A stretch of DNA of 64,000 nt from Desulfobacterales bacterium (GCA_018334555.1 JAGXLR010000001.1:269-64268); one strand, 5' to 3'; counted from the stretch's first letter, positions 16,231 through 34,570 are shown. Translations and numbers: made by a program. Notes: a model not told the origin generated them from the letters alone.

Positions 16231-17088
16231 CTAGAAAAAGGCGGATAAATTGGACAGGTTCATTTCTAAAGACAGGGCCCGGCGATCAATTCCCATGGCA
16301 AGTCCCAGAAACTGGGGAAGATAGAGGATGGGGAGATGCAGATCCCTATGCGCGGACCGAGAAATCCGGCCCTGATAGCCTTCAAGGTTCACCTGGCACA
16401 TGGGGCAAACGGTGACGATGGCGTCCGCCCCCCGGGCGCCCGAAAGGATTGCCGCGACCATCTTTTGGGCGACCTCCGGTTTGATATTCATCAATGAGGC
16501 GCCGCAGCATTTGGTGGCCATATGCCAACCATGAACCCCGGCACCGGTCGCCAGAATCAATGGCTCCATGGAAGTGGGGGCCTCCGGATCGTCAAAGACC
16601 ACATAGGGACGCAGGCACTGACAGCCGTAATAGGGCGCGACCAGATAGCGGGCCATTGTCGTGTGGATATGCTCAGCTAACCCCATGGCGCCGATATCGT
16701 TTGACAGGACATCCAGCAGATGCCGGACCCGTTTTTGCCCCTGCAGTTTGAGGCCTTCGGGTTCGAGCACTTGATTGACCCTTGCCAGCAGGTCGGGATC
16801 CTTGCGCGTTTCCTCGGCGGCCCGCCTCAAGTTGAGATAACAGGCGCTGCACGGAACCAGGATGTCCCCGATCGACGTCCCCATGGACTCGGCAATGGCC
16901 AGGCTCCTTGCCGGCAGGGCGATGGACAACAGCTCGCTCTGCGCCTCGGCCGCAGACGCGCCGCAGCAGGTCCAGCCATCGATTTCCACCAGCTCAATAC
17001 CCAAAACATCAAAAAGCGCACGCGTGGAGATGTCGTATTCCATGGCTGTCCCCTCAAGCGAGCATCCCGGATAATACAAATATTTCAT
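16231..17088 (-). CDS. hdrB: Heterodisulfide reductase subunit B-like protein (two CCG domains)
   Basis: 285 aa with two CCG motifs (GWTCCGASA and TKCCGASL) and conserved Cys spacing (YYGCQC, VCPMCQ). Its start overlaps the hdrC-like stop by 4 nt. Confidence 0.8.
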   Translation of the reverse strand: MKYLYYPGCSLEGTAMEYDISTRALFDVLGIELVEIDGWTCCGASAAEAQSELLSIALPARSLAIAESMGTSIGDILVPCSACYLNLRRAAEETRKDPDLLARVNQVLEPEGLKLQGQKRVRHLLDVLSNDIGAMGLAEHIHTTMARYLVAPYYGCQCLRPYVVFDDPEAPTSMEPLILATGAGVHGWHMATKCCGASLMNIKPEVAQKMVAAILSGARGADAIVTVCPMCQVNLEGYQGRISRSAHRDLHLPILYLPQFLGLAMGIDRRALSLEMNLSNLSAFF

Positions 17089-17717
17089 TGCTGATTCTCC
17101 AGTTTCTCCACGCGCTGAAAAAATTGGTCAAGCGGGTATTCGGGTTTGCGCTTGTTCGGCAGCATAGAAATTTTTTTCTTCCGAAGCAGGCGGATGCCCA
17201 AGGGCGTAAATTTGATCGGAATCGCCGGATTTTTCATTAGGATAAAGTACCGACGCATGAACTCGACCTCGTTGATCCGGCCGTGACGGCGGACGCTGTC
17301 CAGAAAGCTTCCATAGAACCGGGCATTCGGCCGGTATCCGGCGACATCCTTTTTGGCACCCAACTGCTTCAGAAGGTTCATGGCGTCAGTCAACGGCAGG
17401 CCCCGCGGGCATCTCAGGGTACAATAATAGCAGGCCGAGCATAGGGCGAAGGTTTTGCTATGAAATATTTCCTCGGTCTGCCCCATGAGCACGAGCCGCC
17501 AAAGCCTGCGGGGCGTAAAATCCATTAAGTGGGCGTTTCTGCAGGAGGCGGTACAGGTACCGCACTGGATGCATGCGCAGAGTTTCTCCTGAAGCGGTCC
17601 CAGAAGGTCCTCCGCCTTTTCCTCAGGGTAAACGGTAGGGCTGCCTGTCGCAGATAACATGATACGCGTTGCTCCTTCTATACAAATCTCCGGCTCACAC
17701 GGGCCCCATTGCGGCAT
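17085..17717 (-). CDS. hdrC: Heterodisulfide reductase subunit C-like 4Fe-4S protein (start 17717 or, more likely, ATG 17660 after AAGGAG)
   Basis: Has two ferredoxin-type Cys clusters (CIQCGTCTASC and CSACYYCTLRCP) and the length typical of HdrC. Confidence 0.8.
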   Translation of the reverse strand: MPQWGPCEPEICIEGATRIMLSATGSPTVYPEEKAEDLLGPLQEKLCACIQCGTCTASCRNAHLMDFTPRRLWRLVLMGQTEEIFHSKTFALCSACYYCTLRCPRGLPLTDAMNLLKQLGAKKDVAGYRPNARFYGSFLDSVRRHGRINEVEFMRRYFILMKNPAIPIKFTPLGIRLLRKKKISMLPNKRKPEYPLDQFFQRVEKLENQQ

Positions 17718-20700
17718 CGATCATTTCAAACATCTCGGTTTCCGAGCCCTCGGCCAGGACCGTGGCGCTGTTCGGACAGATGGCTGCGCACGCGCCGCAT
17801 CCCTGGCATTTCAACGGATTCACTTCAATCCGGCCGAATTCGGGGTCGATTTCCCGGGCACCGTAAGGGCAGGCCGATATACATAGTTGACAGCCGGAGC
17901 AGAGACTATGCCGAACCACGGCAATTTTCCTGCCCGCAGTCAAGTATTGACGGTTAATCATCCGAACCGCCCGCATGGCAGCGGCCTCCGCCGAAGCCAT
18001 GCTCTCATCAATTAAGCGCGGCGAAAGCGCCAGACCGCATGCGAAAACTCCGGCCGCCAGGGATTCCACCGGCCGCCATTTAAAATCCGCCTCCTTGAAA
18101 AAACCGTGTTCATCCACTTCAGCCCTCAGCTTCGACATCAAGTCCCCGGGCAACACAGGGGTGATGCCGGTGGCAAGAATCAGCAGGTCCGCCTCGATTT
18201 CCACGCTTTGTCCGATGATCGGATCGTTGGCCCTTATGCGGAGCCGGGATGCGCCGTCCCCGTTTTGCCCGGGCACGACCACTTCGGGTTTGGCCTCTGG
18301 GGTATACGGAAAAAAAATAATCCCCTTCCGGCGGGCTTGGGTATAATAGGTCTCATAGAAGCCGGGGGTCATCATGTCCCGGTAGAGGATATATACGGAT
18401 AGGTCTGGATTTTGCTCCTTTAAATACATGGCATGCTTCAATGATGAGAGGCAGCAGACACGGCTGCAATAGTTTCTGGGGGGTTCGCGGCAATCCACGC
18501 ACTGGATCATGGCCACTGAAGAGAGCGCCGCCGGGTCAATCCGCCCCTCCGACCGGGCGGTTTCAAACGCCTTCTGCGTCATGACGGCGGGGCTTTTCCC
18601 ATATCCGTAGCTTTCGGTGGCCCCCTCGACGCCGCCGGTGGCCAGGAGGACCGCCCCATGATGCCCGGTTTGGGCGTTTTTTCCTTCACCGATGGTGCTC
18701 TGAAACCGGCCGACCGAGCCCCGAATATCCGCAACGGTCGAGTTCAAATGCACATGGATCAAGGAATTGTCATTTACCCGGGAGACGGTGGTTTGAAGCC
18801 GTTCGGCCACATCCGCCCCGTCGATGGTCCGGCCCAGCCAATTAAGGTTGCCGCCAAGCTGCTCGGCCTTTTCCACCAGATCGACCCGGAAACCGTGTCC
18901 GGCAATGGCTAGAGCGGCGGTCATCCCGGCAATTCCGCCGCCGATAATCAGCGCGGATTGATAGACAGGAATTTTTTCAGCCGGCCCCCAATGGATCCCT
19001 TTTAACCCGGCAATAGCGAGTTTCAGGCAGCGCTCCACATAGCCGGTGTTATACGGCGTCTGCTCTTTTGCGGGGGCACCGCCGGCAAACCAATCGGAGG
19101 GAAAGACATCTTTTATCTGAACCGCTGCTTCCGGCAGTCCGGCGGCATCGGCGATTTCAAGCCGTCTGTGGGCATATGCATTCGCCGCACAAGTCGCCAG
19201 CAGAATGCGGTTGACGGGTTTGTCCTTTAACTCTTCCAGCATTTTTGCCCATCCGTCGGGGCTGCAAAGTCCGTCCACCTCAAGACATTGGGAAACCGCC
19301 GGCTCCGTTTGTATCCGGTCAAGAAGGACGTCCATATCGATCAGCGCTTTGAGCCGGTCCCCGCAGACACATAGAATAACCAGTATATTCGGCTCTTCCC
19401 GGTTGATATCCCGGTCCCGCCCATCATCTGCTGACTCGACCGTTTCCAGACTGCCGCCGCTCTTGTGTATGGCTTTAGAGGCGCCGCAGGCCGCCGCCCC
19501 CGCCCGTATCACCGCATCATTGATATCGGTTAAGCCGGAGACCGCCCCGCCGAGGAAAACACCAGGGGCTGAAGTCTCTGTGAGGGAGAAGGGCCGGGGG
19601 GCGAGATACCCCCACGGGTTTAGCTCCAGTCCCAGCATTTCCGAAAATTTTTCGGCGTCCTCGGCCGGCCGTTGGCCGACGGACAAAACCACGAGATCGA
19701 AGAGGGCTTCACGGGCGCCATCCATATCCACATATCGGATGGCCAGGCGCGCCCCATCCTCTGAACACGCAACGGAATGCACCCGGCAGCGCTGAAACCG
19801 AACACCCGAGCGTTTGGCATCGTCCAGGTATTGTTGAAACGGTTTTTCAAACACCCGCAAATCCATATGGAAGATAACGGTTTCCACCTGCCCCCCGCCT
19901 ATTTCCCGGGCCAGCATCGCCTCTTTGACAGCCGACATGCAGCAGATGCTGGAGCAGAAATCCGAATCGGTCTGCAGATCCCTTGAGCCCACGCACTGGA
20001 TCCAGGCGATTTTGTTGACGGGCCGCCGATCCGACGGCCTTACCAGCCGCCCCCCGAAAGGGCCGGTGCCGCTGATCAGCCGTTCAAACGCCAGGTGGGT
20101 GACGACATCCGGGTATAGCCCATAGCCGAAAATATCCTTTCCCTCTGCCGGATTAAAATACCGACAGCCGGTGGCAATGATGACGGCCCCCACGCTCAAC
20201 TCGCGCTGCCGGCCCTTTCCGCTTTCCTCATAGAACCGATAGATTTGGGGCAAAAGAAAATCCTCCGAAAAGGGCTTAACCAGATAATCCGCCGCCCCCG
20301 CCTTAATGGACTCAACCGCGCTCTGGACGGCTGCGCAAGCGGTGGTCATCACGACCTGCAACGACGGCTGAACCGCCAGGGCCTCTTTCAATACATCCAC
20401 GCCTTCCATATCCGGCATCTTGATATCCAAAAGCACCAGGTGGAAGGCCTCGGATTTCAACTTTTCCAGGGCGGCCTCCCCGGATTCGGCCGTATCCACG
20501 AGAAACCCCTCCCCGGCCATGAGCGTCTGCAGTTGCTCCCGAACGCTCGATGCCTCATCAGCCACAAGGATTTTAAACTTTTTCCGATCCGCGGCTGCCA
20601 TTCGAATCGCGCCGGTCGGACAAACCGAGACGCATTCGCCGCAGTGGGTGCATGCCGAAAGATCAATCACATGGGTGCCGGGCAGCGCCTGCGGCGCCGG

Positions 20701-21144
20701 CTGATATATGGCCTTTCGGGTCGATAATCCGGCATTGAATGTATCCTTGACTTCAACGGGGCAGGCCTCGGCGCATTGGCCGCACCCCATGCACCGGTTC
20801 GGGTCCACCAAAGTGGGATGCTGGTGCAGCGTGGCGCAAAAGTTGCCCGCCTCGCCAGAGATATCCATAACCTCGGCGGATGCAAGAATCTCAATGTTGC
20901 CATGAAAAAGCCCCCGCCTCAAACATTGCTGACTGGCCTGGTCCGGCTCCACCGCGGGCAGCAGTTTGCACATCCCGCAGCGGTTGGTGGGAAACTGGTG
21001 ATCCAGCTGCTCGAGTATCCCGCCGATATGCGGGGCTTTGTCCACCAAAAATACATGGTAGCCGGTCTCTGCCAGATCGATTGCCGACCGGAGGCCGCTG
21101 ATGCCTGCCCCAATGACCAGTGCGGATCCGGATTTTTCTGCCAT
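17695..21144 (-). CDS. hdrA: Tandem (double) HdrA-like FAD/FeS oxidoreductase with an embedded CheY-like receiver domain
   Basis: 1149 aa containing:
- an N-terminal GxGxxG (VIGAGISGL) and the HdrA motif FPTNRCGMCKLLP
- an inserted ferredoxin (CMGCGQCAEACP, CTHCGECVSVCP)
- residues ~189-306, a complete receiver domain (ILVADE, LLD240, VVMTT, YLVKPF)
- a second HdrA module (IIGGGIAGM, CSRVCC)
- a C-terminal 2x[4Fe-4S]. Confidence 0.85.
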   Translation of the reverse strand: MAEKSGSALVIGAGISGLRSAIDLAETGYHVFLVDKAPHIGGILEQLDHQFPTNRCGMCKLLPAVEPDQASQQCLRRGLFHGNIEILASAEVMDISGEAGNFCATLHQHPTLVDPNRCMGCGQCAEACPVEVKDTFNAGLSTRKAIYQPAPQALPGTHVIDLSACTHCGECVSVCPTGAIRMAAADRKKFKILVADEASSVREQLQTLMAGEGFLVDTAESGEAALEKLKSEAFHLVLLDIKMPDMEGVDVLKEALAVQPSLQVVMTTACAAVQSAVESIKAGAADYLVKPFSEDFLLPQIYRFYEESGKGRQRELSVGAVIIATGCRYFNPAEGKDIFGYGLYPDVVTHLAFERLISGTGPFGGRLVRPSDRRPVNKIAWIQCVGSRDLQTDSDFCSSICCMSAVKEAMLAREIGGGQVETVIFHMDLRVFEKPFQQYLDDAKRSGVRFQRCRVHSVACSEDGARLAIRYVDMDGAREALFDLVVLSVGQRPAEDAEKFSEMLGLELNPWGYLAPRPFSLTETSAPGVFLGGAVSGLTDINDAVIRAGAAACGASKAIHKSGGSLETVESADDGRDRDINREEPNILVILCVCGDRLKALIDMDVLLDRIQTEPAVSQCLEVDGLCSPDGWAKMLEELKDKPVNRILLATCAANAYAHRRLEIADAAGLPEAAVQIKDVFPSDWFAGGAPAKEQTPYNTGYVERCLKLAIAGLKGIHWGPAEKIPVYQSALIIGGGIAGMTAALAIAGHGFRVDLVEKAEQLGGNLNWLGRTIDGADVAERLQTTVSRVNDNSLIHVHLNSTVADIRGSVGRFQSTIGEGKNAQTGHHGAVLLATGGVEGATESYGYGKSPAVMTQKAFETARSEGRIDPAALSSVAMIQCVDCREPPRNYCSRVCCLSSLKHAMYLKEQNPDLSVYILYRDMMTPGFYETYYTQARRKGIIFFPYTPEAKPEVVVPGQNGDGASRLRIRANDPIIGQSVEIEADLLILATGITPVLPGDLMSKLRAEVDEHGFFKEADFKWRPVESLAAGVFACGLALSPRLIDESMASAEAAAMRAVRMINRQYLTAGRKIAVVRHSLCSGCQLCISACPYGAREIDPEFGRIEVNPLKCQGCGACAAICPNSATVLAEGSETEMFEMIDAAMGPV

Positions 21145-21157
21145 TACAATGCCTCCG

Positions 21158-22300
21158 TCATGAGCCTAAACCGACGATTTCGTCGAACTCTTCTTCTTTG
21201 AAAATCGTAAGCGGCGGCGGCTCATCCGCGCTGCGCCCGGCCTGGTAGTCAAATGCGGCCTGGGTGCGGTGCGCCACCATGCGGAAGAGCTGGGTCAAAG
21301 GAATATCGTTTGGGCAGGCATTGGCACACTGGCCGCACCCCACGCAGGCCGTGCCCATGTGCACGAGCCGGGTGATATGATAAAAAATCGTATCCGTAGG
21401 CATTTTGAGCGCGCCCTTTCGCTCGCTCCACTTCAGGTATTGGAGGGGGTCATGGTCAAACACGTCCGTGGTGAAAACGCATTCCCGGCAATAGCAAGCC
21501 GGACAGGCCACCCGACAGTTATAGCAGTTGACGCATCCGGAGAGATATTCGGATAGCTTTTCGATCGTGTTGACTGCGGCGGCCGTTTCCTCAAACACCT
21601 GGTCCCGCTTTTCAGTTCGCTCTTTTATCAACGATTGCACCACCTGCTCCCGTTGTTCCGGGGCTTTTGCGCCCCTGGCGCCGATGTTATCAAGGACCTC
21701 TTTTCCGCGCTCCGTACGGGCCTGCAAAAAAAGCCCCTCATCCAGCGATATCCCGTAGAGCCCGAGGATAATATCGGCCCCCTCGGGGATCGGCTGCTCG
21801 CACATCCGGCAGGCCGGGCTGATTTCAACCGTATTTGACGGTTCGGCACCCGAAAGCCTGGCCCTGCAAAAGGCTTCGCTTGCCGGTCCCTCGTTTTCTT
21901 CCAGAAAGGCCTGATAGCAACGATTGGAAAAGGCGCCCAGACAGTCCATACCGATAATGAGGACCGGTTCACTGGCGCTCTGATGCAGCTTGACCAGCTC
22001 GATATGGGCACGGATCTCACAGGGGCGCAATACGGCCGCAATGTTTGCATCCAGCCCCTTGCGGGTCAATTGGGAGATGTTCTTGGCCGAATTAACGGCA
22101 AAGGCGGGCGCCAGGGGATCGGCGTCATCCAAAAGCACCGGGCGGGATACCAGCGACGGCATTACGGCATCTTTCGTTGGCAGCTGCCGGGGGACCAGCA
22201 TGGCGCTGACAGATTCCAGCCCGAGCACCGATTTTAAAAATTGACGGATATCCGTGAGGCGATCCCCCCCCTGCCTGTCGATTTTGTACCAGTCAGTCAT
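21158..22300 (-). CDS. Iron-sulfur oxidoreductase subunit (FrhB/FlxC-like; exact family uncertain)
   Basis: 380 aa with Cys clusters CVNCYNCRVACPACYCRECVF and CVGCGQCANACP. The N-terminal region loosely resembles F420-hydrogenase beta-type domains. It lies between mvhD and hdrA. Confidence 0.5.
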   Translation of the reverse strand: MTDWYKIDRQGGDRLTDIRQFLKSVLGLESVSAMLVPRQLPTKDAVMPSLVSRPVLLDDADPLAPAFAVNSAKNISQLTRKGLDANIAAVLRPCEIRAHIELVKLHQSASEPVLIIGMDCLGAFSNRCYQAFLEENEGPASEAFCRARLSGAEPSNTVEISPACRMCEQPIPEGADIILGLYGISLDEGLFLQARTERGKEVLDNIGARGAKAPEQREQVVQSLIKERTEKRDQVFEETAAAVNTIEKLSEYLSGCVNCYNCRVACPACYCRECVFTTDVFDHDPLQYLKWSERKGALKMPTDTIFYHITRLVHMGTACVGCGQCANACPNDIPLTQLFRMVAHRTQAAFDYQAGRSADEPPPLTIFKEEEFDEIVGLGS

Positions 22301-22323: not shown

Positions 22324-22749
22324 CTAAACCACCGTTTGATGCTTGCATGCATTGGGTCCGATCCTCTTTACCTGCGCCACCATTTCCTTGATGGTATCCG
22401 CGAATTCGATCCCGTCACTGGCCCCGATCCATGTCAGCCGCAGCCTTTCGGGTTCGATCCCAAAGACGGAGAGGACCTCCTTTAAAAGCCGCATCCGGCG
22501 ACGCGCCTTTAGGTTGCCGTTGATGTAATGGCAGTCGCCCGGATGACAGCCGCTGACCAGAACCGCGTCCGCCCCCTCGAGAAACGCCTTGATGATATAT
22601 TTGGGGTCCACCATGCCGGTGCACATCACCCGGATCAGCCGGACGTTCGGCGGATAGACCAACCGCGATGTGCCAGCCAGGTCGGCCGCGGTATATGTAC
22701 ACCAGTTGCAGACGAACGCGATAATGGTGGGCTCGAATTCTTCTTCCAT
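22324..22749 (-). CDS. mvhD: MvhD-like (methyl-viologen-reducing hydrogenase delta subunit family) electron-transfer protein, Cys form
   Basis: 141 aa with IIAFVCNWCTYTAADLAG ... VSGCHPGDCHY, the typical MvhD/FlxD signature. Confidence 0.85.
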   Translation of the reverse strand: MEEEFEPTIIAFVCNWCTYTAADLAGTSRLVYPPNVRLIRVMCTGMVDPKYIIKAFLEGADAVLVSGCHPGDCHYINGNLKARRRMRLLKEVLSVFGIEPERLRLTWIGASDGIEFADTIKEMVAQVKRIGPNACKHQTVV

Positions 22750-22777: not shown

Positions 22778-25700
22778 TCATTGATCGATTGCATAAATAG
22801 CATTAAACAACCCATCAAGCTCCGACATGACCTGTTTTTCCCTGAAATGCCGGATTTGCGCCGCCCCGCTGGGACAGATGGCCGCACAGCTGCCGCAGCC
22901 TTTGCAGACCGCCTCGTTTACGACCGCGATCTTCCGACGGCCGTCAAACTCAATGGCCGAATAGGGACAAACCGCCATACACATCTGACATCCGGCGCAA
23001 AGATCGGGATCGATCCAGGAGATGGCCGAAGGTATCTGGACTTTACCGCGAGTGGCAAGGGACAGCGCCTTTGCGGCGGCACCGGAAGCCTGGGCGACGC
23101 TGTCGGTAATATCCTTAGGCCCTTGGCAGGCGCCCGCAATAAATACACCGCCGGTTGCCGTATCCAGCGGCCCCAGTTTGGGATGCGCCTCCAGAAAAAA
23201 ACCATCAGCGCCCACGCTTACCCCAAACGTCCGTCCAACCTGCAGAGCATCCGGCCGGGCTTCTATGGCTGCACAGAGAATCACCATATCCACCGGCACC
23301 CGTACAGGGCGGCCGAGCAGCGTATCCTCGGCAACGGCGATGAGCCTGCCCGACTCCTCCGGTGTTCTCGCCTCATCGGTAATTTCAGCGACCCTGCCCC
23401 GGATAAACCGGGTGCCCTCCTCCTGGCACCGGCGATAGAACTCCTCATAGCCCTTGCCGAAGCACCGCTGGTCAATATAGAAATCGTAAACCCGGGTATC
23501 GCGGCCCACTTTGTCCTTGATCAGATGGGCAAATTTCAGGGCATACATACAGCAGACGCGGGAGCAGTACTCGTGATAGTTGACGTCCCGGCTGCCGACA
23601 CAGTGGAGAATGGCCACGCTCTCCGGTGGCCGGGTAAACTTACCGTCGCCGTCGCGCATAAGAATCTCACCGCCGGTGGGCCCGGTCGCATTGGTGAGCC
23701 GCTCAAACTCCAGGCCCGTATAGACATTCGGATATTTGCCGTATCCGTATGGCACCATCGGGCTTGGATCCATCTGGTCATAGCCCGTGGCGATAATAAT
23801 GCTGCCAACCCTTATTTCGCGTATCTCCTCCTCCATCCGATGATCGATGGCGTTTGCCTGACAAACGTTCACACACTGCATGCATTCACAGCATCCACCG
23901 CAGTTCAAGCACCGACCGGCCTCCTTCCGGGCATCGGCCTCAAGAAAGCCTGAGTTGACCTCTTCGAAGGAATGGGTGCGACTCGCGGCTTCCCGGCGTT
24001 CGGGCGCACGCCTTGGCATCGGCGCCGTATCTTCTGATACCGGCATCCATTCAGTACCCGGTGCCGGTTTTTCCGACAGGTTTGCCGCATATGCCGCCAG
24101 ATCCTCCCCACTTATATATCGATCAATGGCTTCCACGGCCCGGTGGGCCTCGGCAACCGCTTCTATCACTGAAGCCGGGCCAGTAACCGCATCCCCGCCG
24201 GCAAAAACATACGGTATGGAGGTCTGAAGGGTTTCAGGCGCAACCATAATGGTACCGCGTCTCGATGTCTCAAGTTCCGTGGCCGGCTGCTGGTCCGCCA
24301 GCCCGGTGATTTGGCCGATCGCCGGGATAACGAGATCACACGGCATTTCAAACTCCGAGCCTTCAATGGGGAGCGGTCGACGACGGCCGGTTTGATCCGG
24401 GGGGCCCAATTCCGTGCGGATACACTCAAACGCCGCCGCCCGCCCATTTTCTTCGATGATTCGAACCGGGGCGGTCAGGTAGGATATATGGACGCCCTCT
24501 GCTTCGGCACACTCGATCTCTTCGTCATAGGCAGGCATTTCACGCCGGGACCGTCTATATACCACGGTAACCGACTGCGCCCCCAGGCGTCTGGCTGAAC
24601 GGGCGGCATCAACGGCCGCGTTCCCGCCGCCCACCACCACCACCGACTTGCCCGTCTCCGGAGCCTTTCCCAGGTTTATCCGGCGGAGAAACGCCGTTGC
24701 CTCCATTATGCCCGCGCCGATATCCTCCCCCGGAATTCCCATCCGCAGGGGAAGATGGGCACCGGTTCCCATAAATACGGCGGAAAAGCCTTCCGCCTTG
24801 AGGCTGTTAAAGGTGATATCTTTACCCAGCCAGATTTTGCACCGGGTTTGGATGCCGGTTTTCAAAAGATAGTCGATCTCCCGGTCCAGAACGGCCGGAG
24901 GAAGCCGATACTCGGGGATACCCAGCCGAAGCATGCCGCCCAAAACCGCTTCGCCTTCAAAAACGGTGACCTGGTAGCCCTTTAGCCGCAGGTAATAGGC
25001 AGCGGTCAGGCCCGCCGGCCCGGAGCCGATAACCGCGATTTTCTCCGGTCGATCCTTGATTTCCGGAACGGGCAGTTCGGAAAAATCTACCTGATCCACG
25101 GCAAAACGCTTCAATTCCCGAATGGCGATCGGGCTGTCGACTTCGGCCCGCCGGCATGACGCCTCACATGGATGCGGACAGACCCGACCCAACACGCCGG
25201 GCAGCGGCAGCCGCTCCATTATCAACCGGACGGCCTCCCTGTATTTGCCCTGCCCGATCAACTGGACATAGCCCTGGACATTGACGCCCGCCGGACAGCT
25301 GATGGTACAGGGCGGCCGGTCCATCTTCTCAATCACATAGGTAATCGGCACCGCCTGAGGAAAAGAGCGATAGATGGCCTTGCGCTGAGAAAGCCCTTCA
25401 TCCCATTGACTTGGCATTGAGACCGGACAAACGTCCATACATTCCCCGCAGCCCGTGCAAACCCCTTCGAGGACATACCTGGGCTTGCGGCGTACGGTAA
25501 CCGTGTAGTTGCCGATATATCCCTCGACCTCCCGGACTTCGGAATATGACAGAAGCTCAATGTTTTCGTTCTGGGCCACCTCCACCATCTTCGGGGTACC
25601 GATACAGGCCGCACAGTCAAGCGTCGGAAAGGTCTTGTCAAACTGCAGCATGTGCCCGCCGATGGTGGTATCCTTTTCCACCAGGTAGACCTTATGGCCC

Positions 25701-26191
25701 GCATTGCCAAGATCAAGGGCCGCCTGCATACCGGCGATGCCTCCGCCTACCACCATCATATCCGGATGAACTGCAACTTCTCGGGTTTGCAGGGGATAAT
25801 GGAACTGTACCCGGCTGACCGCGGCCGCCGCCAGGGTCTTGGCCTTCTGTGTCGCGACATCCGGGTCTTTGGTCACCCAGGAGACCTGTTCCCGCATCGA
25901 GGCCATCTGAAAATAATACGGATTCAACCCCGCCCGTTGACAGGCCCCCTGAAAGGTTTTTTCGTGTAAACGGGGGGAGCAGGAGGCCACCACCACCCGG
26001 TTTAGCCCATATTCACGGATATCGTTCTCAATGAGTTCCTGGCCGGGGTCCGAACACATGAACCTGTAGTCCCGGGAAACCGTGACATTTCTCAAGTGGC
26101 GCACATATTCGGCGACTTCTTCAACCCGTACGTTTGCCGCGATGTTCATTCCGCAATGGCAAATATAGAAACCGATTCTAAGGCTCATCAA
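22778..26191 (-). CDS. hdrA: Giant HdrA-like protein fused to a GltD/NfnB-type NAD(P)H-binding module (HdrL-type), Cys form
   Basis: 1137 aa containing:
- the HdrA N-domain (FYICHCGMNI)
- an FAD motif (VVGGGIAGM) and FPTLDCAACIGTPKM
- GltD-type blocks (CPAGVNVQGY...[44 protein letters not shown])
- a C-terminal HdrA part (CVGSRD, CSRVCC) and 2x[4Fe-4S]. Confidence 0.85.
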   Translation of the reverse strand: MMSLRIGFYICHCGMNIAANVRVEEVAEYVRHLRNVTVSRDYRFMCSDPGQELIENDIREYGLNRVVVASCSPRLHEKTFQGACQRAGLNPYYFQMASMREQVSWVTKDPDVATQKAKTLAAAAVSRVQFHYPLQTREVAVHPDMMVVGGGIAGMQAALDLGNAGHKVYLVEKDTTIGGHMLQFDKTFPTLDCAACIGTPKMVEVAQNENIELLSYSEVREVEGYIGNYTVTVRRKPRYVLEGVCTGCGECMDVCPVSMPSQWDEGLSQRKAIYRSFPQAVPITYVIEKMDRPPCTISCPAGVNVQGYVQLIGQGKYREAVRLIMERLPLPGVLGRVCPHPCEASCRRAEVDSPIAIRELKRFAVDQVDFSELPVPEIKDRPEKIAVIGSGPAGLTAAYYLRLKGYQVTVFEGEAVLGGMLRLGIPEYRLPPAVLDREIDYLLKTGIQTRCKIWLGKDITFNSLKAEGFSAVFMGTGAHLPLRMGIPGEDIGAGIMEATAFLRRINLGKAPETGKSVVVVGGGNAAVDAARSARRLGAQSVTVVYRRSRREMPAYDEEIECAEAEGVHISYLTAPVRIIEENGRAAAFECIRTELGPPDQTGRRRPLPIEGSEFEMPCDLVIPAIGQITGLADQQPATELETSRRGTIMVAPETLQTSIPYVFAGGDAVTGPASVIEAVAEAHRAVEAIDRYISGEDLAAYAANLSEKPAPGTEWMPVSEDTAPMPRRAPERREAASRTHSFEEVNSGFLEADARKEAGRCLNCGGCCECMQCVNVCQANAIDHRMEEEIREIRVGSIIIATGYDQMDPSPMVPYGYGKYPNVYTGLEFERLTNATGPTGGEILMRDGDGKFTRPPESVAILHCVGSRDVNYHEYCSRVCCMYALKFAHLIKDKVGRDTRVYDFYIDQRCFGKGYEEFYRRCQEEGTRFIRGRVAEITDEARTPEESGRLIAVAEDTLLGRPVRVPVDMVILCAAIEARPDALQVGRTFGVSVGADGFFLEAHPKLGPLDTATGGVFIAGACQGPKDITDSVAQASGAAAKALSLATRGKVQIPSAISWIDPDLCAGCQMCMAVCPYSAIEFDGRRKIAVVNEAVCKGCGSCAAICPSGAAQIRHFREKQVMSELDGLFNAIYAIDQ

Positions 26192-26679: not shown

Positions 26680-27552
26680 ATGCAGTTGAAACGTAGACTC
26701 GAAGCCGGAGAATTTACTCTTCTTGCTGAAATCGAACCCCCTAAAGGCGTTAATATTTCCCCCATGATAGACAACGCCGCCAAGGTAAAAGAGGATATCA
26801 CCGCGTTTGTCATCCCGGAGATGAGCAATGCCGTTATGCGGATGAGCGCTCTGGGATCGGCGATGATGCTGCAGAACAAGCGGATGGAGACGATCATGCA
26901 GGTGTGCTGCCGGGACCGGAATCGAATTGCCCTGCAGGCGGACCTTCTGTCCGCCTATGCCTGCGGCATCGAAAATATAATGGCGGTCACCGGCGAGGAT
27001 CCCAGCTACGGAGACCACCACCAGGCGGCGGCGGTATATGACATCACCATCGATGACCTGCTTACCGCAGTTACCGAGCTGCAGGCGGGAAGGGATATGG
27101 CCGGCATCGAGCTGGACGGCAAGCCGGATTTTTTCATGGGGGCGACTGCCAATGCCGGACTCTCCGGTAATGAGCTGGATCGGGAGGCTGACGCAGCCAA
27201 ACGAAAAATCGATGCCGGCGTCCGCTTCTTAATCACTCCCCCCGTCTTCGTGCCGGATGCCATTGAGCCCTTTGTCAAAAAACTGGCCGACCGGGATGTT
27301 TTTGTTATTCCTACGGTTGTATTGTTGAAATCCGTGGGCATGGCCCGTTACATGGCCCGAAACATGCCCAACGTGCATATTCCGGATGAGCTGATCCAGA
27401 AAATCCAGAAAGCTCCGGATAAAACGAAAGAATGCACCCACGTTGCCGTCGAAACCGTCAGGGCGCTTAAGGCCGCTCGGTTCAGCGGCGCCCTGATTGC
27501 CACCATAGGTTGGGAGCACAAACTCCCCGACATTATTCACGGGATCAAATAA
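26680..27552 (+). CDS. metF: Methylenetetrahydrofolate reductase family protein (MetF paralog)
   Basis: 290 aa. The block [31 protein letters not shown] parallels TRDRNRIAIQSDILGAASFDIPNMLCLSGDH of the second MetF at 33141. Confidence 0.8.
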
Positions 27553-27568
27553 AGCAGGAGTATCTTTG

Positions 27569-30500
27569 ATGACACAGCATACGGCAAATGAAAAAGGCGG
27601 GCAAACATTCGGATCGGCAATGGTGGTTGGCGGCGGCATCGCCGGCATGCAGTCCGCCCTCGATCTGGCCAACGCCGGATACTATGTGTATCTGCTTGAG
27701 AAGTCTTCAGCCATTGGCGGAATGATGTCCCAGCTGGACAAGACATTCCCCACAAATGACTGTGCCATGTGAATCATCTCGCCGAAACTGGTCGAGGTCG
27801 GCCGGCACTTGAACATTGAGCTTAGAACCGGAACAGAGCTCATGGGCCTGGAAGGCGAGCCGGGCCATTTCACCGCCCGGGTGCACCAGGAGCCCAGATA
27901 TATAGACACATCAAAGTGCACCAGCTGTGGGGAATGCACCGAGGTTTGCCCCATCGAGATTCCCAATGAATACGACCAGGGGCTCACCACCCGCAAGGCC
28001 ATTTACAAAAAATATGCCCAGGCCATTCCAGGCGCCTATGCCATCAGCAAGCGGGGCACGGCGCCCTGCAAAGCCACCTGCCCCGCCCATGTCAGCATCC
28101 AGGGCTACATCGCCCTTATCAGGGAAAAAAGATATGAAGAGGCCCTCAGGCTATTCAAACAGGACCACCCGTTTCCCGGCATTTGCGGCCGGGTCTGCCA
28201 TCATCCGTGTGAGGACATCTGCACCCGGGGCGACTACGACGAACCCCTGGCCATCCGGGAGCTTCACCGGTTTTTGGCGGACTGGGAAAACAGCCAGGAC
28301 AGCCTGTACGTGCCGGAGATCCCGGAAGAGCGGGATGAAACAATCGCCGTCATCGGCTCCGGTCCGGCCGGACTTGCCGCCGCCTATTTCTTGAGGCGCG
28401 AGGGCTATTCGGTCACTATTTTCGAAAAACTCCCGGTAAAAGGCGGCATGATGGCCGTTGGAATACCGGAATACCGGCTGCCGCGGGACATTCTGGCAAA
28501 CGAGATAGGCGTCATCGAAAAGATGGGGGTCACTATAAAAACCGGGGTCTCCTTTGGCGGCGACATTACCCTGGACAGCCTGCAGGCCGATGGGTATGCC
28601 GCCGTTTTTCTGGGCATCGGCCTGCACGGTGGCCGCCGCTTGGGCGTGGAAAACGAGGATGCGGCGGGCGTTCTCCAGGGCGTTGATTTTTTGCGGGCCA
28701 CGGCCATGGGTGAAGAAACTGCCGTTGGCAAGGATGTCCTCGTGATCGGGGGCGGTAATGTGGCTATTGATGTTGCGCTCACCGCCAAACGCAAAGGGGC
28801 GGAGAACGTAAAAATGGTTTGCCTGGAAACCCGCGAGGAGATGCCGGCCTGGGCGCATGAAATCCGGGAAGCCCTGGAGAGTAATATCGAAATTATCAAC
28901 AGTTTCGGCCCCAAGTCCTTTTTTATTGACAAGAACAACCGGTTTTCAGGCATAGAGTTTAAAACCTGCACGGCCGTTTTTGATGAAAATGGCCGTTTTT
29001 CGCCAAAATACGATGAGAATGCCTGCCAGTCCTATTTCGGCGATACGGTAATCATCGCTATCGGCCAAAAGGCGGAGCTTTCCGGCATTACCGATCAGAA
29101 TATCCCCGTTTCCAAAGCCGGCGGCCTGGAGGCCGACCCCGTAACCCTCCAAACACCCATTGAATGGGTATTCGCCGGCGGAGATGTGTTCTACGGGCCC
29201 AAATCCGTAGTCGAAGCCGTCGCCTGCGGGAAAGAGGCCGCGGAAAGCATCTGCCGATACATCGACGGTAAGGATCTTTACGAGGGCCGTGAGAAAGACT
29301 GGACGTATGAAAAGCCGGATGCCATTGATGAGCCCCATAAACCGCGCGTACCGGTCCGTTGTCTTGAGCCGGAGGCCCGGGAGTGCAACTTCCTTGAGGT
29401 ATCCTTCGGATACGATGAGTCCGAAGCCCAAATTGAAGCCGACCGGTGCCTGAAATGCGGCATCTGCTCGGAGTGCTACCGATGCGTGGACGCCTGCCTG
29501 GCAGGGGCCATCGACCATACGCAAACAGCCGTTGATGAAGATCTGGAGGTGGGCTCGGTTGTTCTCTCTGCCGGCAACGAGGTTTTCGATCCGTCCACGC
29601 TGGAGGATACCTATCGTTATAAGAGCCACCCAAACGTGATCACCAGCCTTGAATTCGAACGGTTTTTAAGCGCATCAGGCCCTACGATGGGCCATTTGGT
29701 GAGGCCATCGGACCATAAGGAGCCGAAAAAAATTGCCTGGCTCCAATGCATCGGATCAAGGGATACCAATCGCTGCGGCAACGGTTACTGCTCATCGGTC
29801 TGCTGCATGTATGCCATAAAAGAGGCCATGATCGCCAAAGAGCATGCCAAGGAGGAACTGGACGCGGTTATCTTCAACATGGATATCCGGACATTCGGCA
29901 AGGATTATGAGAAGTATTATCTAAGGGCCAAGGAGGAAATCGGCGTCCGGTTTGAAAAAGCGCGGGTCCATACCATTAATGAAGCCGAAACCCCCGGAAG
30001 CCTGATCCTTCGCTTTGCCAAAGAAAACGGCGAGCTGGTAAAAGAGGAATTCGACATGGTGGTCCTCTCCGTCGGCATGCAGGTGTCGCCCGCCACCATT
30101 GAAAATGCCAGACGGCTGGATATCGAGCTGGATCAGTACAACTTTGCCGTCACCTCCCCCTTTGAACCGGTATCCACCAGCCGGCCGGGCGTTTTTGCCT
30201 GTGGGACCTTCCAGGGGCCAAAGGATATTCCGAGCTCCGTTACCGAAGCCAGCGCTGCCGCCTGTGCCGCCGGCAGAGATCTGGCCGCTGCCCGGGGGAC
30301 AAGGACGAAGACGGTCGAAATACCGGAAGAAAAGGATGTTGAAGGCGAAGAACCGCGGATCGGGGTTTTTGTCTGCGACTGCGGCATCAATATTGCCGGT
30401 GTTGTCGATGTCCCGGCGGTTCGGGAGTATGCCGCCACCCTGCCGCACGTGGTCTACGCGGGCGAGAATCTCTTCACCTGCAGTCAGGACGCCCAGGACA

Positions 30501-32020
30501 AGATGAAAGAAACCCTGGTGGAGAATAATATCAACCGCGTCGTGGTCTCCTCCTGCACCCCGAAAACCCACGAGCCGATATTCATGGATACCCTGGAAAA
30601 ATGCGGACTGAACAAATATCTTTTTGAAATGGCCAATATCCGGAACCAGGACTCCTGGGTGCACCCGGATGACCCGGAAAAAGCCACGCAAAAGGCCAAG
30701 GAGCTGGTTCGCATGTCGGTTGCCCGGGCTGCCTCCTTGAGGCCCCTCAAGGAACGCCAAATCCCTGTCACCCGAAGGGCATTGATAATCGGCGGGGGGG
30801 TGGCCGGAATGAACGCCGCCCTGGGCATCGCCGACCAGGGATATGACGTGGTGCTGATAGAAAAGGAGTCGGCACTCGGCGGTCTTTGCAACCGGCTGAC
30901 AAAAACCATAGAAGGCGCTGATATTCAATCCTATGTCTCAGAACTGGGCGAGCGTGTAAAAAACCACAGCCATATCCAGGTTCTGACCAATTCCCTGATC
31001 GTCGACTTCTCAGGCTTTAAGGGCAACTTCACCACCGAGGTGCTCGTCGGCCCCGGGATGTATGAACGAAAAATCGACCACGGCGTCGTAATCGTGGCCA
31101 CCGGCGCCAACGAATATCGGCCCAAGGAGTACCTGTATGGGGAAAATCCCCATGTCCTCACCCAGATTGAATTGGCTGAAAAGCTCGAAGACGGGGATCT
31201 CGGGGATCCTGACCGGGTCGTGATGATTCAATGCGTGGGCTCCAGGAACGAAGAGAATCCCGGCTGCTCCCGGGTCTGCTGCCAAAGCGCCATAAAAAAC
31301 GCCATCCATATCAAAAAATTAAACCCGGACGCCCAGGTCTACATCCTTTACCGCGATATCCGGACCTATGGACGCCTCGAGGACTACTATACGGAAGCCA
31401 GAAAACTGGGGGTCATCTTCTCCCGTTTTGATCCGGAGGCCCCGCCTGAGGTCGCCTCGACTGACGAGGGGGTATCCGTTACGTTCCATGATCCCATTCT
31501 GGATCGGGATATCGCTGTGGATGCCGATATCCTGGCATTGAGCACCGGAATGCGGGCAGCCGACACCGAAGAGCTCGCCTCGATCATGAAACTGGGCAGA
31601 AATTCGGAGGACTACTTCATTGAAGCCCATGCCAAGCTTCGCCCAATAGACCTGGAGACGGAAGGGATTTTTGTCTGCGGCACCGCCCACAGCCCCCAGC
31701 TGATTTCCGAGTCCATCGCCCAGGCTTTGGCCGCCGCCGCCCGGGCAACGACCTTTCTTATCCAGCCACACCTCACCCTGTCTGCGGTAACGGCCAAAGT
31801 GGACCCGGATAAATGCACGGCCTGTCTGATATGTGTTCGCACCTGCCCCTATGGAGTGCCGCGGATTAATGAGGACGGGGTCAGTGAAATCGACGACGCC
31901 CTTTGCCAGGGATGCGGCGCATGCGCCGCGGAATGCCCGGCCAAGGCGATTGAACTATCCTGGTATGAAGACGAGCAACTATTAAGCAAAGTGGACGCAT
32001 TATTGGAGGACATCCCATGA
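27569..32020 (+). CDS. hdrA: Giant HdrA/GltD-fusion (HdrL-type) selenoprotein; in-frame TGA at 27770-27772 read as selenocysteine
   Basis: ORFs 27566-27772 and 27809-32020 are in the same frame and separated only by the TGA. Joined, they read [15 protein letters not shown], which aligns with FPTLDCAACIGTPKM and FPTNRCGMCKLLP of the two Cys paralogs. An FAD motif (VVGGGIAGM) precedes the TGA. The start ATG at 27569 follows CAGGAG. Confidence 0.85.
27788..27805 (+). promoter_or_regulatory. Candidate bacterial SECIS hairpin for the hdrA UGA
   Basis: CUGGUC-GAGGUC-GGCCGG forms a 6-bp stem (two G-U pairs) with a GGU-containing loop. It starts 15 nt after the UGA. Folded by eye only. Confidence 0.4.
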
Positions 32021-32448
32021 GTGAAGTATTCGAACCCATCATTCTCGCATTCTGCTGCAACTACTGAGGATACTCAGCTGCGGACCTGGCAGGTTCGATG
32101 CGACTGACTTACCCGACCAGCCTCCGGATCATCCGGGTGCCATGCTCCGGAAAGGTAGATATTATTCATATCCTTCGGGCATTTGAGAAAGGCGCCGATG
32201 GCGTTTGCGTGATTGGCTGCAGGGAGGGCGAGTGTCATTTCAAAACAGGGAACTTTCGTGCCCGCAGACATGTGGAACAGGCCCAAACAGTGCTCGATAC
32301 CATTGGTATAGGCGGCGAGCGGGCGATGATGTACAACCTCTCTTCAGGGGACGGCCCTTTATTCGCCAAGTACGCCGAAGAGATCTATGAAAAAATCAAG
32401 GCGCTGGGGCCGAATCCAATCAGAAGGCAAAAAAAGCATGCGGCATAA
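32017..32448 (+). CDS. mvhD: MvhD-like protein, selenocysteine form; in-frame TGA at 32065-32067
   Basis: The ATG at 32017 follows GGAGGA by 6 nt and overlaps the hdrA stop (ATGA). The frame reads [26 protein letters not shown] and joins the listed ORF at 32098. The Sec aligns with the second Cys of CNWCTY in the paralog at 22324-22749. Confidence 0.8.
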
Positions 32449-32475
32449 AATAGATTATAAATAGTGAGGTCATCC

Positions 32476-33144
32476 ATGATTATCGCCGAAAAGAAGCCCA
32501 TCGAAGAAATTATCGGATATGTCGATGACTGCGGCAAGCTCCTGATCCTGGGATGCAATGAATGCGTCACCGTCTGTGAAGCAGGGGGGAAAAAAGAAGT
32601 CGGTATTCTGGCCTCGGCCCTTCGGATGTATTTCTTAAACCAGGGCAGGGAGGTTAAAATAGACGAGATTACCCTGGAGCGGCAGTGTGACCACGAATAC
32701 CTGGAGGAGATCCGGGATGTCGCCGACCAGTATGACGCCATCGTCTCCCTTGCCTGCGGCGTGGGGGTCCAGTTTGTGGCGGAAAAATACCATTCCCAGC
32801 GCGTCTATCCGGGGGTTAACACCTGTTTTCTGGGGGCTACGGAAGAACGCGGCCGATGGAGCGAGCGCTGCCAAGCCTGCGGCACCTGCATTCTGGCCTA
32901 TACAGGCGGCATATGCCCGATCGCGCGCTGCGCCAAACGGCTTTTAAACGGCCCCTGCGGCGGCTCCAGCAACGGAAAATGTGAGGTCAATCCCGAACTG
33001 GACTGTGCCTGGCAGCTGATCATTGACCGATTGAAAGCCTTGGGCAGACTTGAGGATTACGAAAAACTTCTGGAAATAAAGGACTGGTCTACAGACAGGG
33101 CCGGCGGCCCCCGTAAAGTTGTCAGGGAGGATCTACAAATATGA
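32476..33144 (+). CDS. metV: Methylene-THF reductase-associated zinc-ribbon/FeS subunit (MetV-like)
   Basis: Cys-rich blocks (GCNECVTVCEAGG, CQACGTCILAYTGGICPIARCAKRLLNGPCGGS, CEVNPELDCAW) are typical of the MetF C-terminal-domain/MetV family. The preferred start is the ATG at 32476 after GAGG. Its stop overlaps the metF start. Confidence 0.8.
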   Translation: MIIAEKKPIEEIIGYVDDCGKLLILGCNECVTVCEAGGKKEVGILASALRMYFLNQGREVKIDEITLERQCDHEYLEEIRDVADQYDAIVSLACGVGVQFVAEKYHSQRVYPGVNTCFLGATEERGRWSERCQACGTCILAYTGGICPIARCAKRLLNGPCGGSSNGKCEVNPELDCAWQLIIDRLKALGRLEDYEKLLEIKDWSTDRAGGPRKVVREDLQI

Positions 33145-34073
33145 GCGATACAGCGCGGAGCAAACTGCAACGGATTCTATCGGAAGGCCACTTGGCTGTG
33201 ACATCGGAGTGCGGCCCCCCACGCGGCAGCGATCCCGAAGCCATCAAAGAAAAAGCGGAAATGATCAAAGACTATGTGGATGCGGTAAATGTCACGGACA
33301 ACCAGACATCCGTCACCCGGCTATGCAGCATGGCGGCCTGTATTCATTTAAAGCTCATGGGGGTTGAACCGGTGCTGCAAATGGTCACCCGGGACCGCAA
33401 CAGGATTGCCATTCAAAGCGATATCCTGGGGGCAGCCTCCTTTGACATCCCGAACATGCTCTGCCTCTCCGGCGATCACCAGAGCTTCGGCGACTGTCCG
33501 CAGGGGCAGAATGTCCATGACATCGACTCCATGCAGCTGGTTCAGACCGTCCGCATGATGCGCGACGAGGGGAAATTTTTGGGCGGAGCGGAAATCAAGC
33601 GCCCCCCCAATATGTTCGTGGGCGCTGCCGCCAATCCGTTCGCCGACCCGTTTGAGATCCGGGTGCCGCGGCTGGCTAAAAAAGTAGCGGCCGGCACGGA
33701 GTTTATCCAAACCCAGTGCATCTACAACCTGGATAAGTTTGAAGAATGGATGAAGGGCGTTTGCGACCGCGGCCTTCATGAAAAGGTCCACATCCTGGCC
33801 GGCGTCACCCCGTTTAAGTCCGCCGGCATGGCCAAATTCATGAAAAAGCGGGTGCCGGGCATGGACGTTCCCGATGAGGTGGTCAAGCGCATGTCCGATA
33901 CCCCAAAGGAAAAGCAGCCCGAAGAAGGCATCAATATTTGTGTGGAGAGCATTGAACGGTTGAAATCCGTGGAAGGCGTTCACGGGTTTCATATCATGGC
34001 CATCGAGTGGGAGGGCAAGGTTCCGGAAATCGTTGAACGCGCCGGATTGTATCCGCGCCCGAAAATTGATTGA
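33141..34073 (+). CDS. metF: Methylenetetrahydrofolate reductase
   Basis: 310 aa with the MetF TIM-barrel blocks (VNVTDN, TRDRNRIAIQSD, GDH, FIQTQ). Confidence 0.9.
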   Translation: MSDTARSKLQRILSEGHLAVTSECGPPRGSDPEAIKEKAEMIKDYVDAVNVTDNQTSVTRLCSMAACIHLKLMGVEPVLQMVTRDRNRIAIQSDILGAASFDIPNMLCLSGDHQSFGDCPQGQNVHDIDSMQLVQTVRMMRDEGKFLGGAEIKRPPNMFVGAAANPFADPFEIRVPRLAKKVAAGTEFIQTQCIYNLDKFEEWMKGVCDRGLHEKVHILAGVTPFKSAGMAKFMKKRVPGMDVPDEVVKRMSDTPKEKQPEEGINICVESIERLKSVEGVHGFHIMAIEWEGKVPEIVERAGLYPRPKID

Positions 34074-34163: not shown

Positions 34164-34556
34164 ATGTCCGATAAAAAAACAATTCTTGTGGTTGATGATG
34201 AGCCGGATTTCGTCTCGATCGTGAAAAAAAATCTCGAAAAGGCCGGATTTGATGTGGAAGTCGCCTATGACGGCGTTGAGGGCATGGATAAGGTTAAAGC
34301 GAATCCGCCGGATGCAATTGTCCTGGATGTGATGATGCCTGAAAAGGATGGTTATAAGGTATGCTCCGAATTAAAGAGGGATGAGCAGTACGCGGATATC
34401 CCGATTCTCCTGTTGACGGCCGTCGCCGATCATGTCTCCTCCACCCGGTACTCCCATTATGACGGCATGAGCACGGAGGCCGATGACTACCTACCCAAGC
34501 CCGCATCGGCGGATGATATTCTGGATTCCGTGAAAAGCCTGCTGGGCATGACATAA
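34164..34556 (+). CDS. Single-domain CheY-like response regulator receiver
   Basis: 130 aa with VVDDE, the phospho-acceptor context VLDVMMP, LLLT and LPKP. There is no output domain. Confidence 0.9.
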   Translation: MSDKKTILVVDDEPDFVSIVKKNLEKAGFDVEVAYDGVEGMDKVKANPPDAIVLDVMMPEKDGYKVCSELKRDEQYADIPILLLTAVADHVSSTRYSHYDGMSTEADDYLPKPASADDILDSVKSLLGMT

Positions 34557-34570
34557 TATTCGTTCGGCAT

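Follow-up and report, generated by a model that had tools for sequence, protein, structure and literature searches.

A tandem HdrA with an embedded receiver

The DNA considered here is a stretch of 64,000 nucleotides from a Desulfobacterales bacterium (GCA_018334555.1 JAGXLR010000001.1:269-64268), hereafter the window, and our subject is a gene on its minus strand encoding two fused copies of HdrA, a subunit of heterodisulfide reductase (Hdr) complexes, with a CheY-like receiver domain (REC) lodged in the first copy. An earlier reading of the DNA by itself (the original prediction) had proposed this arrangement. The gene product of 1149 amino acids (aa) and its parts, with FAD standing for flavin adenine dinucleotide and 5odc_A for a solved HdrA chain, are laid out as follows:

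17695-21144, minus strand: fused HdrA-REC-HdrA gene, 1149 aa, ATG start (open reading frame (ORF) and translation)
20830-21144, minus strand: half 1 FAD (thioredoxin-reductase-like) domain, N-terminal part, with GAGISG and C56/C59 (alignment to 5odc_A 145-236)
20587-20829, minus strand: inserted ferredoxin domain with two [4Fe-4S] motifs (Pfam Fer4, Fer4_9 and Fer4_7; 5odc_A 237-309)
20227-20580, minus strand: CheY-like receiver, residues 189-306 (PF00072, E = 4.9e-25)
20425-20427, minus strand: codon (gat) of the predicted phospho-acceptor Asp240 (read from the sequence; D in 121/121)
19435-20196, minus strand: half 1 FAD domain, C-terminal part, with CVGSRD...CSSICC and C384/397/401/402 (alignment to 5odc_A 318-514)
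19000-19398, minus strand: half 2 HdrA N-terminal-type domain, with C592/C594/C627/C652, invariant (alignments to 5odc_A and 8rvu)
17935-18999, minus strand: half 2 FAD domain, with GGGIAG and CVDCRE...CSRVCC (Pfam Pyr_redox_2 at 732-840; NCBIfam HdrA at 830-1135)
17740-17934, minus strand: half 2 C-terminal ferredoxin domain, 2 x CxxCxxCxxxC (Pfam Fer4_7 and Fer4_10 at 1079-1126; 5odc_A 568-647)

Pfam finds Pyr_redox_2, Fer4 and Response_reg domains in the protein, and the best matches in a sequence search of the Protein Data Bank (PDB) are the HdrA entries 5odc, 8rvu, 9sfi and 7bkb. An AlphaFold2 model built from a 66-sequence alignment (predicted local distance difference test (pLDDT) 82.5, predicted TM-score (pTM) 0.82) likewise has HdrA as its top PDB matches in Foldseek (8rvu, 8rvy, 7bkb, 5odc). 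Four segments of the protein align with 5odc_A. Residues 7-181 correspond to 145-309 (the start of the flavin domain and the inserted ferredoxin domain), 315-510 to 318-514 (the remainder of the flavin domain), 583-659 to 2-78 (the N-terminal cluster domain, also aligned to 8rvu 8-107) and 967-1143 to 468-647 (where a second flavin domain ends, together with the C-terminal ferredoxin domain). This alignment and the structural matches bear out the tandem HdrA that had been proposed as the host of the receiver.

Each half carries a GxGxxG FAD motif (GAGISG at 12-17, GGGIAG at 735-740) and a motif of the CxGSRD...CSxxCC type, which in half 2 takes the variant form CVDCRE...CSRVCC. Half 1 (residues 1-570) holds C56 and C59, the equivalents of HdrA Cys194 and Cys197, together with the sole inserted ferredoxin domain; it lacks both the N-terminal domain and, after its FAD part, a C-terminal ferredoxin domain. 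Half 2 supplies the N-terminal cluster domain, a second flavin domain that lacks both the Cys194/197 equivalents and an inserted ferredoxin domain, and the sole C-terminal ferredoxin domain. Across the family C56/C59, all eight cysteines of the inserted ferredoxin domain (C118/121/124/128 and C165/168/171/175), C384/397/401/402 and C882/893/897/898 are invariant. The full HdrA set of N-terminal domain, Cys197 and both ferredoxin domains is thus absent from either half and complete only across the fused pair, and the 1149-aa protein is a single-chain asymmetric HdrA pseudo-dimer with complementary halves.

In solved HdrA the C-terminal ferredoxin domain is the electron entry from MvhD, the high-potential branch runs to HdrBC, the low-potential branch departs via the inserted ferredoxin domain towards ferredoxin, and transfers in Hdr complexes are gated by conformational mobility (PMC9012536, PMC13518236). 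With one inserted ferredoxin domain, the fused protein would have a single low-potential exit. Complementary fused or tandem HdrAs are known from anaerobic methanotrophic archaea (ANME; HdrA3/4, 5/6 and 12/13), where they have been read as one-chain heterodimers (Chadwick et al. 2022, PMC9012536). The protein described here shares their complementary halves, implying a built-in heterodimer with broken two-fold symmetry, but differs in that its Cys197-bearing half comes first and in that the ANME proteins have no receiver.

Relative to archaeal HdrA there is also an insertion of about 10 residues after C56-x2-C59 (residues 57-78, nt ~20911-20976). It contains a third invariant cysteine, C74, which may serve as a further ligand for a cofactor or as a redox-active thiol, in a region where the AlphaFold2 model has its lowest pLDDT (<50).

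The receiver is matched by PF00072 (Response_reg) over residues 192-298, covering positions 1-107 of the 111 in the profile at 88.3 bits (cutoff 30.2). Among solved receivers the closest are 3crn, FleR and CheY (E 1e-18 to 1e-14), and dozens of CheY, NtrC and FixJ receivers match residues ~188-310 in the PDB search. Translation of 20227-20580 on the minus strand reads KFKILVADE...HLVLLDIKMP...VVMTTA...DYLVKPF...RFYE. It contains every motif that the original prediction had quoted for the acidic pair, Asp240, the Thr and the Lys, and the nucleotide positions proposed for the domain and for the Asp240 codon were exact. The catalytic quintet is present as D196/E197, D240, T268 and K290, and the switch residue Y287 occupies the position of CheY Tyr106. 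In the AlphaFold2 model the insert takes the canonical (beta-alpha)5 receiver fold over residues 191-308, as had been anticipated, with strands and helices assigned by DSSP at b1 191-195, a1 199-211, b2 215-219, a2 223-231, b3 236-240, a3 248-258, b4 263-268, a4 273-281, b5 286-289 and a5 294-308; block means of pLDDT are mostly above 80, with dips to 68-79. By residues and predicted fold the receiver is phosphorylation-competent, with the residues of the acceptor pocket intact.

The alignment with 5odc_A places the receiver after the inserted ferredoxin domain and before the rest of the flavin domain, in agreement with the original prediction, and there it stands in place of a linker of about 8 residues. 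It is at this hinge that the chain leads from the inserted ferredoxin domain back to the half 1 flavin domain. The linkers are short, with about 3 residues in the model between alpha5 (294-308) and the flavin-domain strand that follows (312-318).

Grafts on the inserted ferredoxin domain have precedents in the HdrL of Desulfobacterium autotrophicum (PMC2702500) and an ANME-1 HdrA with an NfnB insert (PMC9012536). In HdrL, which in Desulfobacterales is encoded in the same operon as the fused protein, a catalytic NAD(P)H-binding GltD/NfnB insert interrupts the ferredoxin domain, whereas the insert of the fused HdrA is a signalling receiver placed after that domain. The window has two paralogs (22778-26191 and 27569-32020) which had been said to carry a GltD/NfnB-type module at the position equivalent to the receiver. 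The module is indeed there and falls in the same domain and hinge region, but the positions are not identical, since the two cluster motifs of the ferredoxin domain flank the GltD/NfnB-like module, and the receiver comes after the second motif (Pfam; PMC9012536). In the 22778-26191 paralog it interrupts the inserted ferredoxin domain, and Pfam detects neither Fer4_20 nor a GltD module in the fused HdrA, both of which the two window paralogs have.

The fused protein resembles the HdrA of methanogen HdrABC-MvhAGD and related complexes (5ODC, 7BKB, 8RVU) in its FAD domain, its CxGSRD...CSxxCC motif and its ferredoxin and N-terminal domains. It differs in having two copies in one chain, complementary domain loss and a receiver insert, and in being bacterial. 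NCBIfam equivalog scores all fall far short of their cutoffs (in bits, 641.7 against 1100 for HdrA2, 471.5 against 1400 for HdrA, and 465.2 against 1300), and by these profile scores the protein is an HdrA-family homolog and not a CoM-S-S-CoB reductase equivalog.

Distribution, conservation and prior descriptions

PF00072 is carried by all of the at least 120 homolog clusters listed, which are 49-99% identical to the protein, share its domain order and, one partial sequence excepted, measure 1129-1165 aa at 99-100% coverage. A scan of one genome per species gave 589 matching stretches, a number obtained with two patterns so that the genes may be fewer. The best 80 of these, on which all counts of related loci given below rest, cover residues 1-1146 at 48-73% identity in species-level genomes. 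Their hosts are nearly all Desulfobacterales sensu lato (Desulfobacteraceae, Desulfosarcinaceae, Desulfosalsimonadaceae, Desulfococcaceae and Desulfatiglandales) with a few labelled Syntrophobacteria, and the named carriers include Desulfonema magnum and an Olavius symbiont. The closest species representative, a Desulfobacterales metagenome-assembled genome, is only 73% identical, so that the species of the window is not among the representatives. In a library of representatives at 50% identity, about 20 span the junction from ferredoxin through receiver to flavin domain in a single stretch. Judged from these sequences the HdrA-REC-HdrA family is compact, and the Response_reg domain within HdrA, whose distribution the original prediction had asked about, is widespread and nearly confined to the Desulfobacterales.

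The same data bear on the concern, raised with the original prediction, that the gene is a mis-assembly or a chimera of HdrA and response-regulator genes. A full-length copy that is 99% identical and has the same neighbours is present in an independent metagenome assembly in the European Nucleotide Archive (ENA), the architecture recurs in all of the listed clusters and in the best 80 stretches, hundreds of genomes have full-length homologs, both receiver junctions are conserved (F190 and G326 are invariant), and nothing was found in favour of an artefact, which we regard as refuted for practical purposes.

Conservation within the receiver was assessed in an alignment of 121 sequences of ~50-99% identity. 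None of D196, D240, T268, Y287, K290, P291 and F292 varies; at position 197, D stands in 119/121 and E in 2/121, the window protein being one of the two with E. Mean within-clade pairwise identity is 0.73 for the receiver and 0.80 for the first 105 residues of the protein, with other regions at 0.45-0.68. Because the invariant residues serve only phosphoryl transfer and conformational read-out, this pattern is strong evidence at the sequence level that purifying selection acts on the phosphochemistry of the receiver.

An origin of the receiver from a neighbouring regulator was considered and rejected, as it is uniformly ~26-35% identical to each neighbouring receiver with none standing out, and its best NCBIfam matches, of NtrC/ZraR/AtoC type, are not diagnostic.

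Public annotation of the family is automatic ("response regulator", "FAD-dependent oxidoreductase", "heterodisulfide reductase subunit A"), and NCBIfam has no model specific to the HdrA-REC-HdrA architecture. Our literature search, which did not reach Pereira et al. 2011 and Appel et al. 2021, returned no description of a receiver in HdrA. A survey of 501 HdrA sequences that recognises 11 domain architectures never mentions a receiver in its text (bioRxiv 10.1101/2024.09.26.615249), and locus VIII of D. autotrophicum (hdrL/hdrA4, hdrB/hdrC and an fdhB-type gene) looks syntenic, in a paper that is silent on a receiver in HdrA (PMC2702500). Fused complementary HdrAs and grafts on the inserted ferredoxin domain are already known (PMC9012536, PMC2702500); it is the receiver graft that the literature searched does not describe.

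Linked kinases, a sister clade and the proposed control

Among the related loci, 49 have at least 5 kb of downstream sequence and are informative as to what follows the operon. A histidine kinase of more than 300 aa lies within 6 kb downstream in 42/49, on the same strand in 33. The usual one is a kinase of ~772 aa with the domain order HAMP-PAS-PAS-HisKA-HATPase, which typically follows HdrB on the same strand and forms one orthogroup present at 40 loci (examples are L007:15040-17373 and L004:19014-21344). In 29 loci the next gene encodes a REC-HATPase protein of ~406 aa (REC-kinase) in which an H-box-like motif is conserved, and many related loci also have REC or REC-PAS-kinase genes upstream of HdrL.

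The ~772-aa kinase has two predicted transmembrane helices flanking a loop of ~165 residues. The loop has a CxxCH motif at ~119 in 34/34 full-length members and Cx3-5CH at ~162 in 33/34, CxxCH being found in just 0.2% of shuffled loops. PF21563 (Mcp40H-20_sensor) is the top Pfam match in 10/11 orthologs tested, four of them above the gathering cutoff, with matches that run from weak to just over it. A PDB search with a single loop sequence gave no significant match; with a loop profile, 3b47 and 3b42 ("Methyl-accepting chemotaxis protein") rank second and third at non-significant E values of 0.29 and 0.56, and in the alignment with 3b47 the second Cys motif of the loop adjoins the C..C..H of that structure. 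We take 3b47 and 3b42 to be PAS-like periplasmic sensor domains with c-heme from Geobacter. In the kinase, the first of the cytoplasmic PAS domains has a conserved Cys-rich motif, C..AYKG..(K)C..CP, in 32/40 members. Together these features make the ~772-aa protein a probable candidate for a heme-c redox-sensor kinase.

In the window itself the original prediction had pointed to a receiver and kinases at 34164-38607 as possible partners:

37108-38607, minus strand: PAS-HisKA-HATPase kinase, candidate only (Pfam)
35601-37115, minus strand: REC-HisKA-HATPase kinase, candidate only, overlapping and co-oriented with the gene at 37108-38607 (Pfam)
34164-34556: single-domain receiver, following the gene cluster at 26680-34073

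These genes exist, and the kinase pair resembles the logic of a sensor kinase followed by a REC-kinase seen in relatives. They could not be established as orthologs of the linked signalling genes, and were set aside as such, the kinases at 35601-38607 being 24-37% identical to the family-linked kinases even where the HdrA proteins are 68-73% identical. The heme-motif sensor region of the linked kinase has no match anywhere in the 64-kb window. With window kinases that are at the level of paralogs and no match to the sensor region, the cognate kinase of this genome is probably encoded outside the window. A further histidine-kinase-like region lies at 58600-59350 on the minus strand, where tblastn with the locus kinases matches the HATPase part at 27-38% identity.

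A further search, which took a divergent junction match (P0150) as its seed, found a second large clade in the Desulfovibrionales, whose members include Pseudodesulfovibrio, Solidesulfovibrio, Desulfocurvibacter africanus (P0291), Desulfolutivibrio sulfoxidireducens (P0272), Maridesulfovibrio, Desulfobaculum and others. Their tandem HdrA has the length, two-half architecture and insert site of the window protein at ~40% identity. The insert has degenerated: of the catalytic residues the second acidic one is missing, a gap stands opposite the Thr and the Lys mostly survives; roughly half of the members keep D at the acceptor position and the others have G, S or A there. The insert is also the least conserved region of the protein in this clade (0.43), the remaining regions being on a par with those of the Desulfobacterales clade.

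Neighbourhoods were compared on six contigs (L085-L090, from the six taxa just named), five of more than 1.7 Mb and one of 276 kb; the contig of another example, L084, was too short to show its surroundings. All six genomes share with the window the operon core MvhD-FrhB-like-[A-insert-A]-HdrC-HdrB and have a plain HdrA of ~680 aa in the place of HdrL. After HdrB come a Usp protein and then an ORF, HdrD-like in those cases that have a Pfam annotation; upstream of the operon lies a divergent sigma54-type response regulator, and the downstream kinase pair was found in 0/6. The state of the receiver thus tracks the presence of the kinase, intact with the kinase pair and decayed without it, and at the level of sequence comparison this contrast is suggestive of phosphorylation control.

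The retention of a same-size insert with degenerate catalytic residues, that is a fold without phosphochemistry, could also favour a receiver fold that is never phosphorylated and acts as a structural spacer or docking module, positioning the inserted ferredoxin domain or binding a partner subunit. We hold this to be improbable for the Desulfobacterales protein, as five phospho- and read-out residues are invariant in the 121 sequences with position 197 acidic, the residues decay in the sister clade, and kinase linkage goes with the intact version of the receiver.

Receivers fused in cis are the established regulators of the enzymes CheB, PleD and RpfG. The fused HdrA is like response regulators with enzymatic output (CheB, PleD/WspR, RpfG) in having a full catalytic set in cis with an enzyme and, in most relatives, kinase genes nearby, and by analogy it may work as one. 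It differs from them in that the receiver sits inside the enzyme and not at its N-terminus, and in having as its output an energy-metabolism flavoenzyme with multiple clusters, an output that no paper in the literature search described.

On balance we lean toward an electron-bifurcating Hdr complex that would be controlled by phosphorylation and tuned post-translationally. Asp240 would be phosphorylated by a histidine kinase, which in most relatives would be the co-located membrane kinase with its CxxCH (heme-c type) sensor loop, probably acting with or through the adjacent REC-kinase. Phosphorylation would alter the alpha4-beta5-alpha5 face (T268/Y287/K290), of which alpha5 runs nearly into the flavin-domain strand, and the altered face could either move the ferredoxin-exit domain or make it more or less accessible, or else change how the complex is assembled. 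A redox signal would in this way switch or tune the bifurcating Hdr complex post-translationally and not by way of gene expression. The more specific proposal, that a two-component pathway headed by the membrane kinase with heme-c-type motifs directly switches the cytoplasmic complex on and off, or between bifurcation and confurcation, via Asp240, is tentative and we would not yet bet on it. By analogy, plausible substrates would be NAD(P)H via HdrL, ferredoxin, and a disulfide at HdrBC.

Information could also flow the other way, with the receiver as an input whose rate of phosphorylation or dephosphorylation follows the redox or conformational state of the FeS and flavin domains, which we consider unlikely; on this reading the enzyme would be a phosphate sink or phosphorelay node through which the state of Hdr would reach the kinase pair and then gene expression. 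Loci with several REC proteins and kinases could make a branched relay, and the receiver is wedged among redox domains with short linkers. However, the Desulfobacterales loci that were examined do not consistently include a DNA-binding output regulator, and a receiver in cis on an enzyme usually regulates that enzyme.

Several observations weigh against phosphorylation control of the complex. No kinase is nearby in 7/49 informative loci, and the 64-kb window has neither a kinase beside the operon nor an ortholog of the linked kinases. The clade contrast is effectively one phylogenetic event and not statistical proof. Moreover, the complex persists in the Desulfovibrionales without a phosphorylatable receiver, so that the role of the fold may be also, or mainly, structural. 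The original prediction had suggested that phosphorylation could gate electron flow or complex assembly; the case for such post-translational control is strengthened by the invariant phospho-residues, the tight kinase linkage and the loss of both in the sister clade, while phosphorylation itself, the gating and any effect on assembly are what we infer from these.

In many anaerobes energy coupling centres on flavin-based electron bifurcation, whose known control is conformational (within the enzyme) or transcriptional. If phosphorylation control holds, the fused HdrA would represent a direct signalling input into a bifurcating enzyme and the first case of post-translational His-Asp phosphotransfer control of electron bifurcation. 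It would couple membrane-sensed redox state to the ferredoxin, NAD(P)H and disulfide balance in complete-oxidising marine sulfate reducers, the family being widespread in the Desulfobacterales, key mineralisers of carbon in marine sediments. The Desulfovibrionales provide a natural control clade in which the switch has decayed, and the hypothesis is thereby testable in cultured members.

Operon context and other genes of the window

The fused gene belongs to an operon with the order HdrL-MvhD-FrhB-like-[HdrA-REC-HdrA]-HdrC-HdrB, in which genes are separated by gaps of 13-28 nt or, in two cases, overlap:

22778-26191, minus strand: HdrL-type HdrA paralog, first gene of the operon (Pfam Fer4_20, Pyr_redox_2; conserved neighbour in Desulfobacterales)
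22324-22749, minus strand: MvhD, [2Fe-2S] electron-transfer subunit (Pfam FlpD 1.3e-54; conserved neighbour)
21158-22300, minus strand: FrhB/FdhB-like FeS flavoprotein, directly upstream of the fused gene with a 13-nt gap (Pfam FrhB_FdhB_C; both clades)
17085-17717, minus strand: HdrC-like FeS subunit, its start overlapping the HdrA stop by 23 nt (Pfam Fer4_17; most loci)
16231-17088, minus strand: HdrB-like subunit with CCG domains, in a 4-nt overlap with HdrC (Pfam CCG 7.1e-21; conserved neighbour)

The order recurs across the 80 related loci. In NCBIfam the HdrC-like protein matches CoB_CoM_SS_C (1.4e-19) and the HdrB-like protein CoB_CoM_SS_B (2.3e-45), both under the family cutoffs. Adjoining genes for HdrB (CCG), HdrC and MvhD, conserved in the related loci, are a further likeness to methanogen HdrA, from which the system differs in having HdrL and the FrhB-like protein as partners and not a hydrogenase. 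A promoter and terminator scan of the window operon gave results at chance level and was uninformative. The genes 3' of HdrB in the window encode a PKD-domain protein, ApbE and an SBP-SLT protein.

In some Desulfobacterales loci (L002, L013, L017, L028, L030, L040, L060 and L073) the FrhB-like gene and the fused HdrA are separated by an additional HdrC-like gene, which the window does not have; in L002, which was annotated with Pfam, a short CCG-domain gene follows it.

Divergent from the Hdr operon, the plus strand at 26680-34073 encodes MTHFR, an HdrL and an MvhD that each probably contain selenocysteine (Sec), a MetV-like protein (DUF5981) and MetF, and this cluster is the expected methylene-tetrahydrofolate reductase/Hdr module of a complete oxidiser using the Wood-Ljungdahl pathway. 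Its HdrA-GltD-HdrA paralog (27569-32020, plus strand) has an in-frame TGA at 27770-27772, FPTNDCAM[TGA]IISPK, at the position of HdrA Cys197, which is selenocysteine in the HdrA of Methanococcus maripaludis (PMC13518236), and the paralog is probably a selenoprotein. Reading the TGA as selenocysteine puts the start of its ORF at 27569; an independent assembly annotates the same region as a 67-aa gene and a 1403-aa gene. The MvhD gene that follows (~32026-32448, plus strand) likewise has an in-frame TGA, at 32065-32067 (FCCNY[TGA]GYSAADLAG), and when translated from 32098 its product matches Pfam from profile position 21 onward only. This MvhD too is probably Sec-containing, and a Sec-containing MvhD has been reported for D. 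autotrophicum.

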